Shown here one piece after another: positions 16,601 to 63,900 of a stretch of DNA of 64,000 bases. The stretch is from Armatimonadota bacterium. Lineage in GTDB: Bacteria > Armatimonadota > SYMT01. The stretch's first letter is position 1. Every line of letters begins with the position of its first letter. The DNA lies in NCBI GenBank assembly GCA_046292385.1, contig JBKBRF010000001.1, positions 31,305 through 95,304 on the forward strand, written 5' to 3'. A model generated the notes under the pieces. It was not told the origin of the DNA and made no database searches. It saw nothing but the letters and a program-made list of their open reading frames with translations. Made by a program: the position numbers and the translations under genes.

Positions 16601-19600
16601 ACCCGCTCGAACCGCTCCCAGTCCTGTTCCAGCAGGGGCGCGTCGTCGAGCGTTCCCGCCGAGTGGACCACTCCCGCGAGGGGGCCCAGCTCCCGGTCGA
16701 TTTGCTCCAGTACCGGCTGCAGCGCGGTAGGGTCGGACACGTCGGCCGGGAAGATGAGCACGCGAGCCCCTGCCTTCTCCCACTCCCGGAGCAGGCGCGC
16801 CGTCTCCGCGGAGGGTCCGCTGCGGCCGAGGAGCGCCAGGTGCCGCGCGCCCTGCTCCACCATCCACCCGGCGACGGCGAGCCCCAGGTCGCCGAGTCCG
16901 CCGGTTATGAGGTAGGCCGCGTCGCCTCGCAGGGAAGTCGAGGGCAGGAGCGCGGCAGCGCGGGGTGCCAGGCGCGGGACGAGCCGCCGGCCGGCGCGGA
17001 AGGCGACCTCCGCCTCGGGCGAGCCAGCGATCAGCTCCGCCGCAAGCCCTTCGATCTCGGGGTCGTTCGGATCGAGGTCCACGCACGCGCAGCGCAGCGC
17101 CGGAACCTCCAGGGCCGCGGCGCGCGCCAGGCCCGCCAGTGCCGCCTGCATCGCCGCGTCTCCGAACGCGCCGGCCGGCGCACTCCCCCGCGTGACCAGG
17201 TAGAGCGGCGGCGGCTCTTCCAGGCGCGCCAGCGCCTGGGAGAGGTGGAGAGCACCCTCGCAAACAGCCCGCTGCGCCTCCAGCGCGGCTCCGGGCTCCG
17301 GCTGGGCGGGGGCGTCCAGCGCGGCAAGATAGGTGACTCCTCGGTAGCGGTTTTCGCGGAGCAGGGCCTCGATTGCGGCCGGGTCCGGGGAGACCACCAG
17401 GTGGCAGCGCTCCCCCAGCTCTTCCAGCCGCTGCGTCAGCCGCTCGGCCGTCCCGCCGCGATCCGGGACGATCAGCCAGTCGCCGCCCGCCGCGGGCGCG
17501 CTCTCCGCGCGGGCGAGGAGCAGCTGCCCGCCATTCAGGGCCGCCGCCTCGGAGAAGCCGGAGCCTGCCAGCAGCTCCAGCCACGCCTCTCGGGAGAGGA
17601 GGGGATGGTCGGGGCGCAGGGAGGTATCCTGGAAGCGCCACCAGCCTTCGGTGAGACCGAAGACGAGGTCGACCCACCGCCGGCGCTCGGTGCTCTCCAC
17701 CAGGAGCAGCAGGCCCCCGGGCGCGAGGAGCTGACGCGCGTGGCGGAGGGACTCCGCCAGGTCTCGGGTAGCGTGTAGGACGTTCGACGCGATGACCAGG
17801 TCGTACCCACCCGCCGGGTAGCCCTGCTCCTCCGGGGAGCGCTCGACATCGAGGGTCCGGCACCGCAGGAAGGGGCACGCCGCGAACGCGCCGGCGGCCT
17901 GTTCGGTAAAGTAGCCGGAGACATCGGTGAAGAGGTAGTCGGTGCGGTCCGCATCCAGGCGCGGGAGCAGGGCCGCGGTGGCCGAGCCGGTGCCGGCCCC
18001 GATCTCCAGCACCCGGAGCGCCCGGCCGGACGGCAGGCTCGCCGCGACCTCCGCCGCCGCGTCGCCGAGGAGCGTGTTGATCCACCGCGCGTAGGGCGAG
18101 TCGTGGTAGAGATCGCCCGCGCCGGAGTCCTGGCCCGCAGTAAAGAGCAGTGACAGCGCGTCGGTCTCGTCGCGCAGCACCTCCGCCAGGTGAGCGCCGC
18201 AGCGGCGCAGCAGCTCCAGCTCGGCCCGGCAGGTGGGATACCGCGCGATCAGCTCCGCGCAGCGGCCGTCCGGGCTGCCGCTCTCCGGCTGCTCCCGCAC
18301 GATCCAGAGGGCGTGCTGCCGCTCCAGGACCCCTTCTTCCTCCAGGATCTCGAGCAGCCGGTGGAACAGGCGGCGATGCCGGTCCGCGATGTCGAGCTCC
18401 GCCGCCAGGGCGTGCCGGGTGACGCGGCGGCCGAGCGTGAACTCGAAGCCGAGGCGCCGGAATGCGCCGGCCACGTACGCGGCGCTGAGCCGGTCCAGCT
18501 CCGGCGCGAGCTCGGCGTAGACCCCCAGCCCCAGCTCTTCGGCCAACTGGGCGGCGCGCGGCTCCAGACGCTCCGCGAGTGCCTCCGCCCTCGGGAGAAA
18601 GTCCGGGGCGGGGAGACTATCAGTGAGGAGCGACGGCTGCCAGCGGATCTCGTAGAGCGCGCCTTCCAGCTCGGCGGAGTCGCTCTGCGCCTCCCACAGC
18701 GCCGGGGAGACGCGCCGGAACCGCACTCCCTCGATCTCCGCGATCCGGTCGCCTCCTGCGCCCAGCAGGGCGAGCGATCCGAGGACCGAGCCGCCCTCGC
18801 GGACCGCCCTCGCGCGGCACCAGACCTCCTCACCCGCGGCCCGGAAGACCCGGAGGCGCTCCAGGCTGACCGGCAGGTAGACTTCGTCTCCGTCGCTGCC
18901 GGGGAGCGCCGCGGCGAGAAGCTGGAGGCATCCGTCGAGGAGCGGGGGGCTCAGGATGTGTCGGGAGTCGCTCGCGCCGGCGCCGTCCTCTACGCGAACC
19001 CGGCCCACCACCTCGCCTTCAGTACGCCAGAGGGCGCGGACCGTCCGGAAGCTGGGGCCGTACCGCACGCCGGCTGCCTCCAGCCCGCGGTAGAGCTCTT
19101 CCACGCCCAGCTCCTGCGCCCCGGCGGGTGGAATCGGCGTTCGGTCGACCGGAGCAGAGCCGGGCTCCGCAATCGCGGCGACCCGGCCGCGGGCATGCTC
19201 CACCGAATCCTCACCGGAGACACTGAAGATCCGGAGCTCGAACCCGCCTTCGACGTGCGGCTGCAGCAGGGTGTGGCAGAGGACCTCTTCCCGCTCCGGC
19301 AGCAGGAGAGCCGCCGGGAACGCGATCCCCTGCACTTCGCAGGCGGGCGAGCCGAGCACGCGCGCCGCGGCGGCGAGCGCCAGCTCCAGGTAGCCCGCCG
19401 CCGGGAACACCACCCGGTCGGTCACGCAGTGGTCGGCCAGGTAGGCGGGCTCCTGGCGGCCGATCCGCGCCTCGAAGCGCCGCTCCCGGGAGCCCGGCTG
19501 CGGCACGGGGGTGCCGAGCAGGGGGTGGAGGGCAGGAAGAGCCTGCCGCGCCGGTGCTGCGTGGGCCGGCGCGGGAGCCTCCGGGAGAGTCTCCACCCAG

Positions 19601-60957: not shown

Positions 60958-63900
60958 TCAGGCTCCGCCCCTGGAAGGTCTCCGGTCCAACTCGGCCAGT
61001 TTTCGCTCCAATAGTGCCTCGGCCTCGGCTTCTGAAAGCTGCTCCAGATCATCGGCGAGAGAGTGGGAGTCAGTTCGCCGTGAGACCGGCAAGCAACCTC
61101 CGTCCTGCTCCCCGAGGAACTGAACGACCGCCGCGATCCATGGATGGTTGAAGGCGAGGGTCACCGGGAGCTCCCGTGCCAGCCGGCGCGAGAGCGCGTC
61201 CCGCAGCTCCACCGCGCCCAGCGAGTCGAGCCCCAGCTCCCCGAGCGGGGTCGTCTCGTCCAGCCTGGCGTCGCCCGCGAGTCGCAGCACCTCGCGCAGC
61301 ACCTCTCGGACCACGGTCACCAGCTCCGCAGCGGGAGGGCAGGCCGAGGCCGCTTCCGCTGCCGAGTTTTCGGCGGTCCACCCCGGCGCCAGTACCAGCG
61401 CGTGCGGGAGATCGGACTGGAGGAGCCCCTGGAGGGCCGCGAGTCCCTGGCGTGCTGAGAACGGCCGGAGCCCGTGCGCCGCCCACTGCGCCCCTCGCCG
61501 GTCGTCGGCCGCCGCCATCCCCGTGCCCTCCCAGGCACCCCACCCGATGCTGAGCGCGGGCAGCCCCAGGGAGTGCCGGTGGCGAGCCAGCCCGTCGAGG
61601 AACGCGTTGGCCGCCGCATAGATCCCGGCTCCCGGCAGTCCCAGGTACGGAGTGGCGGAGGAGTAAAGGACGAAGAAGTCGAGCTCCAACGCCAGGGTGA
61701 GCCGGTGGAGGTGCCACGCGCCCTCCGCCTTACCGGAGAAGACTGCCTCAATCTGCTCCGCTGAGGTGCGGGCGAGCAGCCCGTCTGACAGCGCACCGGC
61801 GGCATGGAAGATGCCCCGGAGCGGCGGCATGCCGTCCCGGATCTCCGCGAGCACCCCCGCCACCGCCTGCTCGTCCGCCAGGTCGGCACCGAACACCCGG
61901 ACCTGAACGCCCTGCTCCCGGAGCCGGTGGAGTGTCGGATGCTCCCGCTCGGTCCGGGTGACCAGGGCCAGGTGACGCGCCCCGAGCGCTGCCAGCCGCT
62001 CCGCCGCCGCGAGCCCCAACCCACCGAGCCCGCCGGTGAGGAGATACGTCGCGTCGGCGGTGATTCGCGAAGGCCCCGGGGGGAGAGGGAGACGGACGAT
62101 GCGCGGCACGAGGCGCTCCGAGCCACGCAGGGCGACCCGCTCTTGCGGCTCTTCCGTCAGTAGCTCGGCCAGCAGCGTCCCGGCCTCTCGCGCGGCGGGG
62201 TCGAGGTCGATCAGGGAGCACCGCAGCTCCGGGTGCTCCGCTCGCAGCGCCGCGGCGGCACCCTGGAGCGACGATTGCAGCGCTTCGCCGTCCTCCGCGC
62301 CGCCGGTCACGATCCAGAGACGGGTGGAGCCCGGGGCCGACGCGACCGCTCGGAGCAGGTCCGCCAGGCCGCCGAGGAGCCGCCGTCGCTCCCGAGCCAG
62401 GCTCGCGGCCGAGGCGTTCGACAGCGGAGTAGCGTCCAGTGCGGCGAGGTAGACGACGTTCCGGCGCTCGCCGAGCTGGAGCCGATCCGGTAAGCGTTCT
62501 CCGGACTCGTCGGGGAGGTGGAGGACGCACTCCGCGCCGCGGGCGCGCAGGCCCGCCGCCAGCTCCGGGCCGAGCTTGCGGTCGGAGATCAGGAGCCAGG
62601 GGCCCGGGGGCAGGGCTCCCGGCCGGAGCCTGAGCGGGCACCACTCGATCCGGTGGGCAAGCTCCGCCGCGCTGTCTTGCGGGTCTGCCGGCAGGGGAAC
62701 GGGATGATCGAACCAGTAGCGCTGTCGCTGGAACGGATAGGACGGCAGCGAGAGTCGGCGGCGCGGCGCCGGGTAGTGAGAGGCCCAATCGATCGCCTGC
62801 CCGTGCACGTAACCGTACGCGATCCCCGCGGCTCCCGGTGCGGACTCTTCCGGGGGCGCAGCGGAGGAGACGACGCCCGGAGCCGGCCTGCCGCAGAGGT
62901 AGGCCCGCAGCGCCTCCCGCGCGCCGGCAGCGTCCTTCGCCACTACCGCCAGCCGGTGCTCGAAGTGTCGTCGCCCGACGCTCGCTGAGTAGCAGACGTC
63001 GTGCCAGTCGCAGTCTTCCCGGAGCCGCTCCACGCACCGCGTGACGAGCGCCCGCAGCGCGGTCTCCGAGTGGGCGGAGATCGGCAGGACGCCCGGTCCG
63101 TCTCCTCCCGGCGGCTCCGGGAGAGACGGCGCCGGCCCGAGGATCAGGTGGGCATTCGTGCCGTTCATGCCGAAGGCGCTGACGCCGGCGATGCGGACCG
63201 GGTCGTCCCAGGCGCGCGGCGCGGCGGGGATCTCCAGCGCCGGCGGGAGCGGTTCCAGGTCCGGGTTGAGCCGGCTCTGGTGCAGATTGCCCGGGATCAT
63301 TCCCTCCCGGATCGCCGTGACCGCCTTGATGAGCCCGGCCATGCCGGCCGCCGCCTCGCAGTGACCGAGCTGGGTCTTCACCGCTCCCAGCAGCAGCGGC
63401 TGCTTTCGGCTGCCCCCCAGGACCTCGGAGACCGCCTCGACCTCGATCGCGTCCCCGAGCCGCGTCCCCGTGCCGTGGGCTTCCACGTAGCCGACCGCTT
63501 CAGGCGCAACGTTCGCGGCGGCGAGCGCGCTGCGGATCACGGCGGCCTGAGCCCGGCCGTTCGGCGAGGTGAGCCCGTTGCCGCGACCGCCCTGCGCCAC
63601 CGCCCCACCCAGCACCACCGCCAGCACCGGGTCGCCAGCCTCCACCGCGTCCGAGAGCCGCTTGAGGACGAGCATCCCGCAGCCCTCGCCGCGGACGAAC
63701 CCGTCGGCGGCGGCATCGAACGTGCGGCACGCTCCACTCGGGGAGAGGAGACCCGCGTTCGCCATCGCCTGCGCCACATGCGGCAGGAGGATCAGGTTCA
63801 CCGCGCCGGCCAGCGCGGTCCGGCACTCGCCCGCCTGCAGGCTGGCGCACGCCAGGTGGACCGCCGCCAGGGAAGAAGCGCAGGCCGCGTCCACGACCAT

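Follow-up and report, generated by a model that had tools for sequence, protein, structure and literature searches.

Our analysis of a 64,000-nucleotide stretch of an Armatimonadota genome (assembly GCA_046292385.1; positions 31305-95304 of contig JBKBRF010000001.1, here C1), referred to below as the window, revealed a hybrid polyketide synthase–nonribosomal peptide synthetase (PKS–NRPS) assembly line in which modules with and without an acyltransferase (AT) domain stand together in one collinear order. The line of about 68 kb comprises a loading acyl carrier protein (ACP) domain, 11 ketosynthase (KS) modules, two heterocyclising NRPS modules and a thioesterase (TE), and its large genes within the window, at positions 10678-64000, all lie on the minus strand. 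By Pfam, ATs are confined to modules 1, 2, 5, 8 and 10 and are absent from the other six (3, 4, 6, 7, 9 and 11), giving the order + + - - + - NRPS - + - + - NRPS-TE on one strand, where + denotes an AT-bearing module. A first-pass annotation of the window had counted eight KS modules, five of them AT-less, in the order - + - NRPS - + - + - NRPS; count and order hold for the window, but the line runs on for about 15 kb past its upstream edge, where genes A and B add KS1-AT, KS2-AT and the AT-less KS3. The ancestry of the line is cis-AT (CurL-like) and a dedicated trans-AT is absent from the assembly; malonyl must consequently reach the AT-less carrier domains in trans, with embedded ATs or FabD as the donor enzymes. 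To this extent the interpretation offered by the annotation (cis-type KSs, no trans-AT, a need for loading in trans) is partly supported. We propose, tentatively and with somewhat less than even confidence, that the AT-less modules are served by embedded malonyl ATs from neighbouring modules or subunits, with the housekeeping FabD as a possible helper.

The absence of ATs is seen both by Pfam and in a linker alignment, which agree at all five places singled out in the window. The Pfam AT family, Acyl_transf_1 (PF00698), matches only three of the eight window KS modules, the number given in the annotation; they lie in genes C, G and H. The motifs GQG, GHSxG and HAFH are restricted to AT-bearing modules, the two other matches to GHSxG lying in a KS and in the TE. 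In an alignment of the 11 stretches from KS to dehydratase (DH), the KS-AT linker of modules 3, 4, 6, 7, 9 and 11 enters the post-AT linker (..VDW..LPxYPFQRxxYW) via short fillers that differ from one another, and the spacing between KS end and YPF is 136-160 aa where the AT is missing, versus 426-437 aa where it is present. All modules contain the families KAsynt_C_assoc, CurL-like_PKS_C and RhiE-like_linker, and the YPFxR motif occurs in 11 of 11. No AT match or remnant was detected inside the AT-less modules, either by Pfam or in a lenient scan with a profile of the line's five ATs. The near alternation of AT-bearing and AT-less modules, also pointed out in the annotation, does not rise above chance, and we discarded it as a signal: with five ATs distributed over 11 modules, every AT-less module has an AT-bearing neighbour in 61 of 462 arrangements (P 0.13), or in 38 of 462 when the NRPS break is counted, and at least seven switches have a P of 0.26.

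An assembly artefact is an unlikely cause of the AT gaps, because independent contigs span the junctions. Logan contigs of sequencing run X1 match 43500-47180, 48526-54065 and 54036-63400 with 0 differences; this run is probably the source sample, and hence not independent. The module 7 junction is also spanned by a contig (X5) from another study (44034-44466, 9 differences), and that of module 4 by a contig (X3) from another study (62527-63111, 29 differences), the identity across the junctions being 95-98% in these two studies.

Where could malonyl for the AT-less modules come from? Over the whole assembly (7.04 Mb, 91 contigs, 98.45% complete), PF00698 marks six places: the five embedded ATs and a 306-aa open reading frame (ORF) on contig 13 that NCBIfam identifies as a FabD equivalog (342.5 bits; cut-off 260.9). 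A search with our own AT profile at E<=10 over all six-frame pieces of at least 60 aa returned the same six places and no further AT, and no flanking AT occurs across C1:11305-135000. The claim that the window contains no free-standing AT is borne out by Pfam of its ORFs, and extends to the rest of the cluster and, FabD excepted, to the assembly. The estimated completeness of this 91-contig draft implies that some DNA is missing, and a dedicated trans-AT could lie in sequence absent from the assembly or on a plasmid that escaped binning. We regard this as improbable, given that the cluster lies inside a 333-kb contig with no AT in the flanks scanned, that a dedicated trans-AT usually has its gene inside the cluster, and that five of the six AT-less KSs are not of trans-AT type.

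Four of the embedded ATs (AT1, AT2, AT8 and AT10) carry GHS(V/L)G and HAFH, as do the malonyl ATs of reference loci, and FabD has APFH. C-methyltransferase (cMT) domains occur in modules 1, 5, 7, 8, 10 and 11, with or without an AT; HAFH in four ATs together with branching by cMTs means that a single malonyl extender could feed every module. The suggestion that malonyl plus cMT in place of methylmalonyl would make ATs redundant is thus in keeping with four of the five ATs and with the cMTs as sources of branches. AT5 has GAYH in place of HAFH and is the most divergent AT, at 49-52% identity to the other four. Its Pfam match ends at profile position 276 of 319, and its module carries two methyltransferases (MTs), one of them O-MT-like. 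No match of the 3-hydroxy-3-methylglutaryl-CoA-synthase type (beta-branching) was found among the ORFs scanned in the window and its flanks.

To place the KSs, 263 KS domains were extracted with a profile of the line's own 11 from the line itself, from 118 of the 120 proteins returned for gene D, from four plasmid loci and from the genome's own FabF. One plasmid, which we take to make thiomarinol, combines PKS genes without embedded AT with a separate AT gene annotated 'fabD' and is the sole trans-AT reference system. Trees from FastTree and from an IQ-TREE quick search (72 rows) are mutually consistent and are read as unrooted splits only; rooting on FabF placed an implausible root on a very long branch and was abandoned. 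A split with a support of 99 isolates 21 rows, which comprise all 11 KSs of the trans-AT plasmid, three KSs of an AT-less Verrucomicrobia protein and a 'post-NRPS' group including KS7. The remaining 10 of the line's 11 KSs, among them five of the six AT-less ones (KS3, KS4, KS6, KS9 and KS11), group with AT-bearing KSs of Nostoc, Pseudonocardia and others. AT-less and AT-bearing KSs interleave, with the AT-bearing KS10 next to the AT-less KS11 (94), the AT-less KS3 and KS9 together (100), and the AT-less KS6 in a cluster with two foreign KSs, of which one is AT-bearing and the other AT-less (98). Forcing KS3, KS4, KS6, KS9 and KS11 into the 21-row set costs 58.6 log-likelihood units and is rejected by the approximately unbiased (AU) test (p 0.0297), in agreement with the earlier description of the AT-less KSs as cis-type.

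Comparison with solved structures leads to the same relatives. CurL of the curacin synthase (PDB 4mz0) is the best single-KS match of both KS6 (590 bits over KS and linker, then 30 bits in the post-AT linker) and KS11 (634 bits); between the matched stretches, CurL has its AT (chain residues 587-893), a stretch that is absent in the modules of KS6 and KS11. Single-KS chains named PksJ, PksL or 'AT-less polyketide synthase' give no more than 429 bits for KS6 and 444 bits for KS11, and the two KSs of chain 7zma, presumably a trans-AT bimodule, give 358 and 384 bits for KS6. The best solved chain for KS7 is 4wky (569 bits), followed by ClbC (435) and CurL (408). That the line is a canonical trans-AT PKS carrying a few cis ATs therefore appears scarcely credible. 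The six AT-less modules do keep an AT-docking-like linker, module 3 has a non-canonical architecture, and KS7 falls into the set in which the trans-AT KSs lie, but the split and the AU test (p 0.03) put the other five AT-less KSs with cis-AT KSs, and neither a trans-AT gene nor a non-elongating KS0 was found, all 11 KSs having Cys-His-His. The position of KS7 is accounted for by its place after an NRPS module, NaPDoS2 being described as having a clade of hybrid trans-AT KSs together with hybrid cis-AT KSs (PMC9582728).

The assembly line is intact. Its nine genes are tightly spaced or overlapping and have no internal stops, about 68 kb of coding sequence being free of stops and frameshifts. 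The Cys and both His residues (that of HGTGT and the second one) are retained in 11 of 11 KSs, as had been noted for those of the window, and the serine of the DS motif is retained in all ACPs of the line. We infer that the line is productive. Its only odd module is module 3, without a ketoreductase (KR): neither the structural nor the catalytic half is present, and the DH lacks the HxxxGxxxxP that the module 9 DH has. Judged from these domains, module 3 may be partly inactive or pass on an unreduced beta-keto group, and it is the one module that looks degenerate. One could imagine a decaying cluster that yields no full-length product and whose AT-less modules, all or just some of them, are dead or skipped; besides module 3, lacking AT, KR and the catalytic-His motif of its DH, the tree identifies KS4 as the most divergent KS, and a search of 400 other genomes of the phylum did not turn up the cluster. 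We consider decay very improbable, however, in view of the open coding sequence and the catalytic residues kept in all KSs and ACPs. Furthermore, the reductive domains of AT-less modules 6, 7, 9 and 11 score well in Pfam, 95-100% identical DNA, junctions included, recurs in metagenomes of other studies, and AT-less paralogues as far apart as 47-79% identity are still open, which indicates long purifying selection.

How, then, might the AT-less modules be loaded? In the model that we favour, the six AT-less ACPs would be malonylated in trans by enzymes already in the cell, all branching would come from the cMTs, and a single malonyl extender would fit every module. Every AT-less module has an AT-bearing neighbour, and the retention of five ATs whose catalytic motifs are intact despite mutual identities of only 49-62% argues that these ATs are needed. 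The fungal LasC/LasD line (PMC13749307), discussed below, provides a precedent for this model. A number of points weigh against loading by embedded ATs. The neighbour pattern lacks statistical significance (P 0.13); embedded ATs would need to act across polypeptides, since four subunits (B, D, F and I) are entirely without AT; and the sequence does not single out the loader of the AT-less ACPs. Module 3, with no KR and a DH lacking HxxxGxxxxP, suggests that part of the line may be degenerate, and an orthologous cluster for comparison was not found among the gene D protein matches or the 400 phylum genomes. The KS tree, from a quick search, has one trans-AT reference system, and the group put to the AU test was fixed after tree inspection, although it corresponds to the finding that the first-pass annotation itself had named as refuting, namely KSs within canonical trans-AT clades. 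Finally, rescue by FabD has been published for an AT6-null 6-deoxyerythronolide B synthase (DEBS; PMC6164871) and for PipC (10.1101/2025.06.17.660182), so FabD alone could suffice.

It is also conceivable, though in our view less likely, that the housekeeping FabD alone is the trans-AT of the six AT-less modules and that the embedded ATs serve their own modules only. FabD is the sole free-standing AT of the assembly, and a malonyl-only logic suits its specificity. Efficient loading by FabD would, however, leave the long retention of five intact embedded ATs unexplained, and AT-less lines mostly keep a dedicated AT instead of relying on FabD. A parallel is the AT-less PipC, whose ACP is described as malonylated by FabD where the genome has no trans-AT (10.1101/2025.06.17.660182).

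The start of the line adds a further acceptor. The N-terminus of gene A (L007:14816-15016) is a lone ACP with no loading AT, KSQ, GNAT or adenylation domain, followed by KS-AT-cMT-ACP without KR; with no loader of its own, the starter also needs loading in trans.

The identities among the line's KSs bear on the age of the AT losses. At 47-79% pairwise identity, the modules are old paralogues, which argues that the losses are old as well and not recent excisions. In the proposed history, six modules would have lost the AT yet kept the KS-AT linker and the post-AT linker packing against the KS, and the old losses would have left at least three junction types. By linker identity, modules 3 and 9 form one group (85-88%), modules 6, 7 and 11 a second (57-66% in the KS-AT linker) and module 4 a third, other pairs reaching at most 55% there. 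Gene B aa 105-600 and gene G aa 2233-2724 share a tract of 1493 nt with 87.7% DNA identity (L010:5846-7333; window 31476-32951); within it lie the bulk of the KS and the entire AT-less junction, it stops just past YPFQR, and beyond it the proteins of modules 3 and 9 are just 30-48% identical. This difference between tract and flanks argues that the AT-less KS-linker cassette was copied between the two modules, by what may have been duplication or gene conversion. We further speculate, with considerable reserve, that five malonyl ATs are shared across subunits with six AT-less modules, that the cassette spreads by gene conversion, and that the line represents an extant step in the transition from cis-AT to AT-less organisation, arising from inside the cis-AT KS clade.

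The mixed layout is already known, and the architecture alone will be unsurprising to a specialist. A 2022 catalogue of 8799 lines lists 122 PKS and 351 PKS–NRPS lines with both module types, 473 or about 5% in all (PMC10394414). Among external KS junctions, a sample biased by the AT-less query, 36 of 128 are equally short, and several genome loci place AT-less KSs beside AT-bearing ones; with such numbers, the layout is too common to be set apart as a special cis-to-trans-AT intermediate. A myxobacterial cis-AT cluster with one module that 'lacks an AT domain' has been reported as expressed (PMC13454183), and kirromycin is a named example of a mixed line (PMC5818483). As in the kirromycin type, AT-bearing and AT-less modules are here combined in one PKS–NRPS line and the AT-less modules keep the KS-AT linker. 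Kirromycin-type hybrids, however, have dedicated trans-AT genes, whereas none was found in this assembly, and the AT-less KSs are here paralogues of the line's own cis-AT KSs.

Three systems set a precedent for loading that dispenses with a dedicated trans-AT. Fungal LasC/LasD (strasseriolide C) are described as having no trans-AT and as carrying ATs in just three modules (2, 4 and 7), with malonyl passing from module 2 to the loading ACP (PMC13749307). They share with our line a minority of AT-bearing modules, the lack of a trans-AT and a loading ACP without its own loader, which the lone ACP of gene A recalls; they are eukaryotic, contain no NRPS modules and have been shown to function, and the likeness is one of description, not of sequence. 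PipC, from pseudotetraivprolide and detoxin-rimosamide-like pathways, is a FabD-dependent AT-less module (10.1101/2025.06.17.660182) that likewise keeps its docking linker, with no typical trans-AT in cluster or genome and FabD as the sole free-standing candidate, but it is a single PKS module in an NRPS line, compared with six AT-less among five AT-bearing modules here. AT6-null DEBS, complemented by malonyl-CoA:ACP transacylase or by trans-ATs (PMC6164871), illustrates how a cis-AT-type module without a working AT can be loaded in trans and still extend the chain, albeit in an engineered system (AT point-inactivated or deleted) and not a natural line.

Among AT-less relatives, the closest is P0117 from Competibacteraceae metagenome-assembled genomes, with 45% identity over its full length; at its loci (L029 and L030) it holds the only KS within about 20 kb. 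A PF00698 scan of five other genomes with mixed loci showed that several of their 'AT-less' modules hold AT remnants. In genomes G401, G402, G404 and G405 (loci L097, L049, L085 and L059), the remnant of some modules without a full AT consists of the first 115-150 profile positions, once with a C-terminal piece in addition. These are partial AT deletions, in contrast to the clean ones of the present line.

What is the relevance of this system? It is a large, intact, orphan polyketide cluster of thiazole/thiazoline type in Armatimonadota. If its embedded ATs serve their neighbours, it would offer a natural bacterial test bed for AT sharing and for the repeated rise of AT-less organisation from cis-AT synthases. 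For PKS engineering, it would then bear on how many ATs a line needs and on the portability of an AT-free KS-linker cassette.

Table 1. Features of the assembly line and its surroundings. Positions are those of the window unless prefixed by a locus label; ER, enoylreductase; Cy, heterocyclising condensation domain; A, adenylation domain; PCP, peptidyl carrier protein.
Feature	Position	Strand	Content	Basis
Module 4 AT-less junction	62707..63147	-	136 aa KS end to YPF	Alignment; X1 and X3 contigs span
Module 6 AT-less junction	52573..53037	-	144 aa KS end to YPF	Alignment; X1 contig spans
Module 7 AT-less junction	44113..44613	-	156 aa KS end to YPF	Alignment; X1 and X5 contigs span
Module 9 AT-less junction	31461..31910	-	139 aa; inside 1493-nt tract 87.7% identical to module 3	
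Module 11 AT-less junction	19591..20103	-	160 aa KS end to YPF	Alignment
Gene A	upstream of window		ACP-KS1-AT-cMT-ACP-KS2-AT-DH-ER-KR-ACP	Pfam
Gene B	3' part 60958..64000	-	2460 aa in full; ORF in L010 263-7645; module 3 and module 4	Pfam
Gene B module 3	L010:3745-7645, outside window		KS3-DH-ER-ACP, no AT	Pfam
Gene B module 4	in window	-	KS4-KR-ACP, no AT	Pfam
Gene C, module 5	54390..61052	-	KS5-AT-MT(O-MT-like)-cMT-KR-ACP	Pfam
AT5	58446..59276 (gene C aa 593-869)	-	Embedded; GHSLG, non-canonical GAYH replacing HAFH	
Gene D, module 6	49984..54393	-	KS6-DH-KR-ACP, no AT	Pfam
Gene E, NRPS	45872..49987	-	Docking domain, Cy-type condensation (DLLIADAAS), A with inserted nitroreductase-type oxidase, PCP	
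Gene F, module 7	39370..45867	-	KS7-DH-cMT-ER-KR-ACP, no AT; KS7 of post-NRPS 'hybrid' type	Pfam, tree, PDB
Gene G	28005..39647	-	Module 8 KS8-AT-DH-cMT-KR-ACP and module 9 KS9-DH-ER-KR-ACP (no AT)	Pfam
AT8	36777..37700 (gene G aa 650-957)	-	Malonyl-type: GHSVG, HAFH	
Gene H, module 10	21500..28105	-	KS10-AT-DH-cMT-KR-ACP	Pfam
AT10	25409..26320 (gene H aa 596-899)	-	Malonyl-type: GHSLG, HAFH	
Gene I	10678..21474	-	Module 11 KS11-DH-cMT-KR-ACP (no AT), then Cy-A(inserted MT)-PCP-TE	Pfam
P450	9431-10681	-	Downstream tailoring	Pfam
Free-standing condensation/PapA-like acyltransferase	8199-9434	-	Downstream	Pfam
Sfp-type phosphopantetheinyl transferase	7420-8202	-	Downstream; housekeeping genes beyond	Pfam
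Type II thioesterase, ABC1-type kinase, AcrB/membrane-fusion RND efflux pair	L007:15054-20000 and L008:3-3544		Upstream of PKS	

For genes G and H, the reading frames in Table 1 begin at the first possible start and thereby run into the preceding genes, by 278 nt (39370-39647) and 106 nt (28005-28105), respectively; the true starts probably lie further downstream. The AcrB/membrane-fusion pair upstream of the PKS is a candidate for export or self-resistance.

Both condensation domains of the NRPS modules contain DxxxxDxxS, the signature of the heterocyclising type. From its domain content, the gene E module, with Cy and an oxidase in the A domain, is predicted to form a thiazole or oxazole, and the end of gene I a methylated thiazoline or oxazoline terminus. 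The two NRPS modules are joined by a 1887-nt tract of 93.5% DNA identity (47075-48949 and 13060-14937) that covers the Cy end and most of the A domain, and they probably activate the same amino acid. No known compound could be matched to the predicted product, and no paper describing a PKS product from Armatimonadota was found among the titles and abstract openings searched.

The cluster (C1:40001-110000) is the GC-richest stretch of the genome, with 0.73 against a mean of 0.69 and above the 99th percentile of 10-kb windows. Searches for it in the 400 other genomes of the phylum gave a best match of 53% that covers a KS only, and the best foreign matches of gene D are likewise confined to the KS, with at most 59% identity in the top rows and 61% in one lower-ranked match. 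Horizontal acquisition of the cluster is plausible. No RNA dataset is among the listed holders of cluster DNA. The best holder of the DNA at 43500-63400 is a hot-spring metagenome, and stretches of 95-100% identity have also turned up in three other studies, in metagenomes of soil and roots. Of seven MnmA matches with an organism in their name, six come from Armatimonadota metagenome-assembled genomes, the host being an uncultured soil or hot-spring bacterium.

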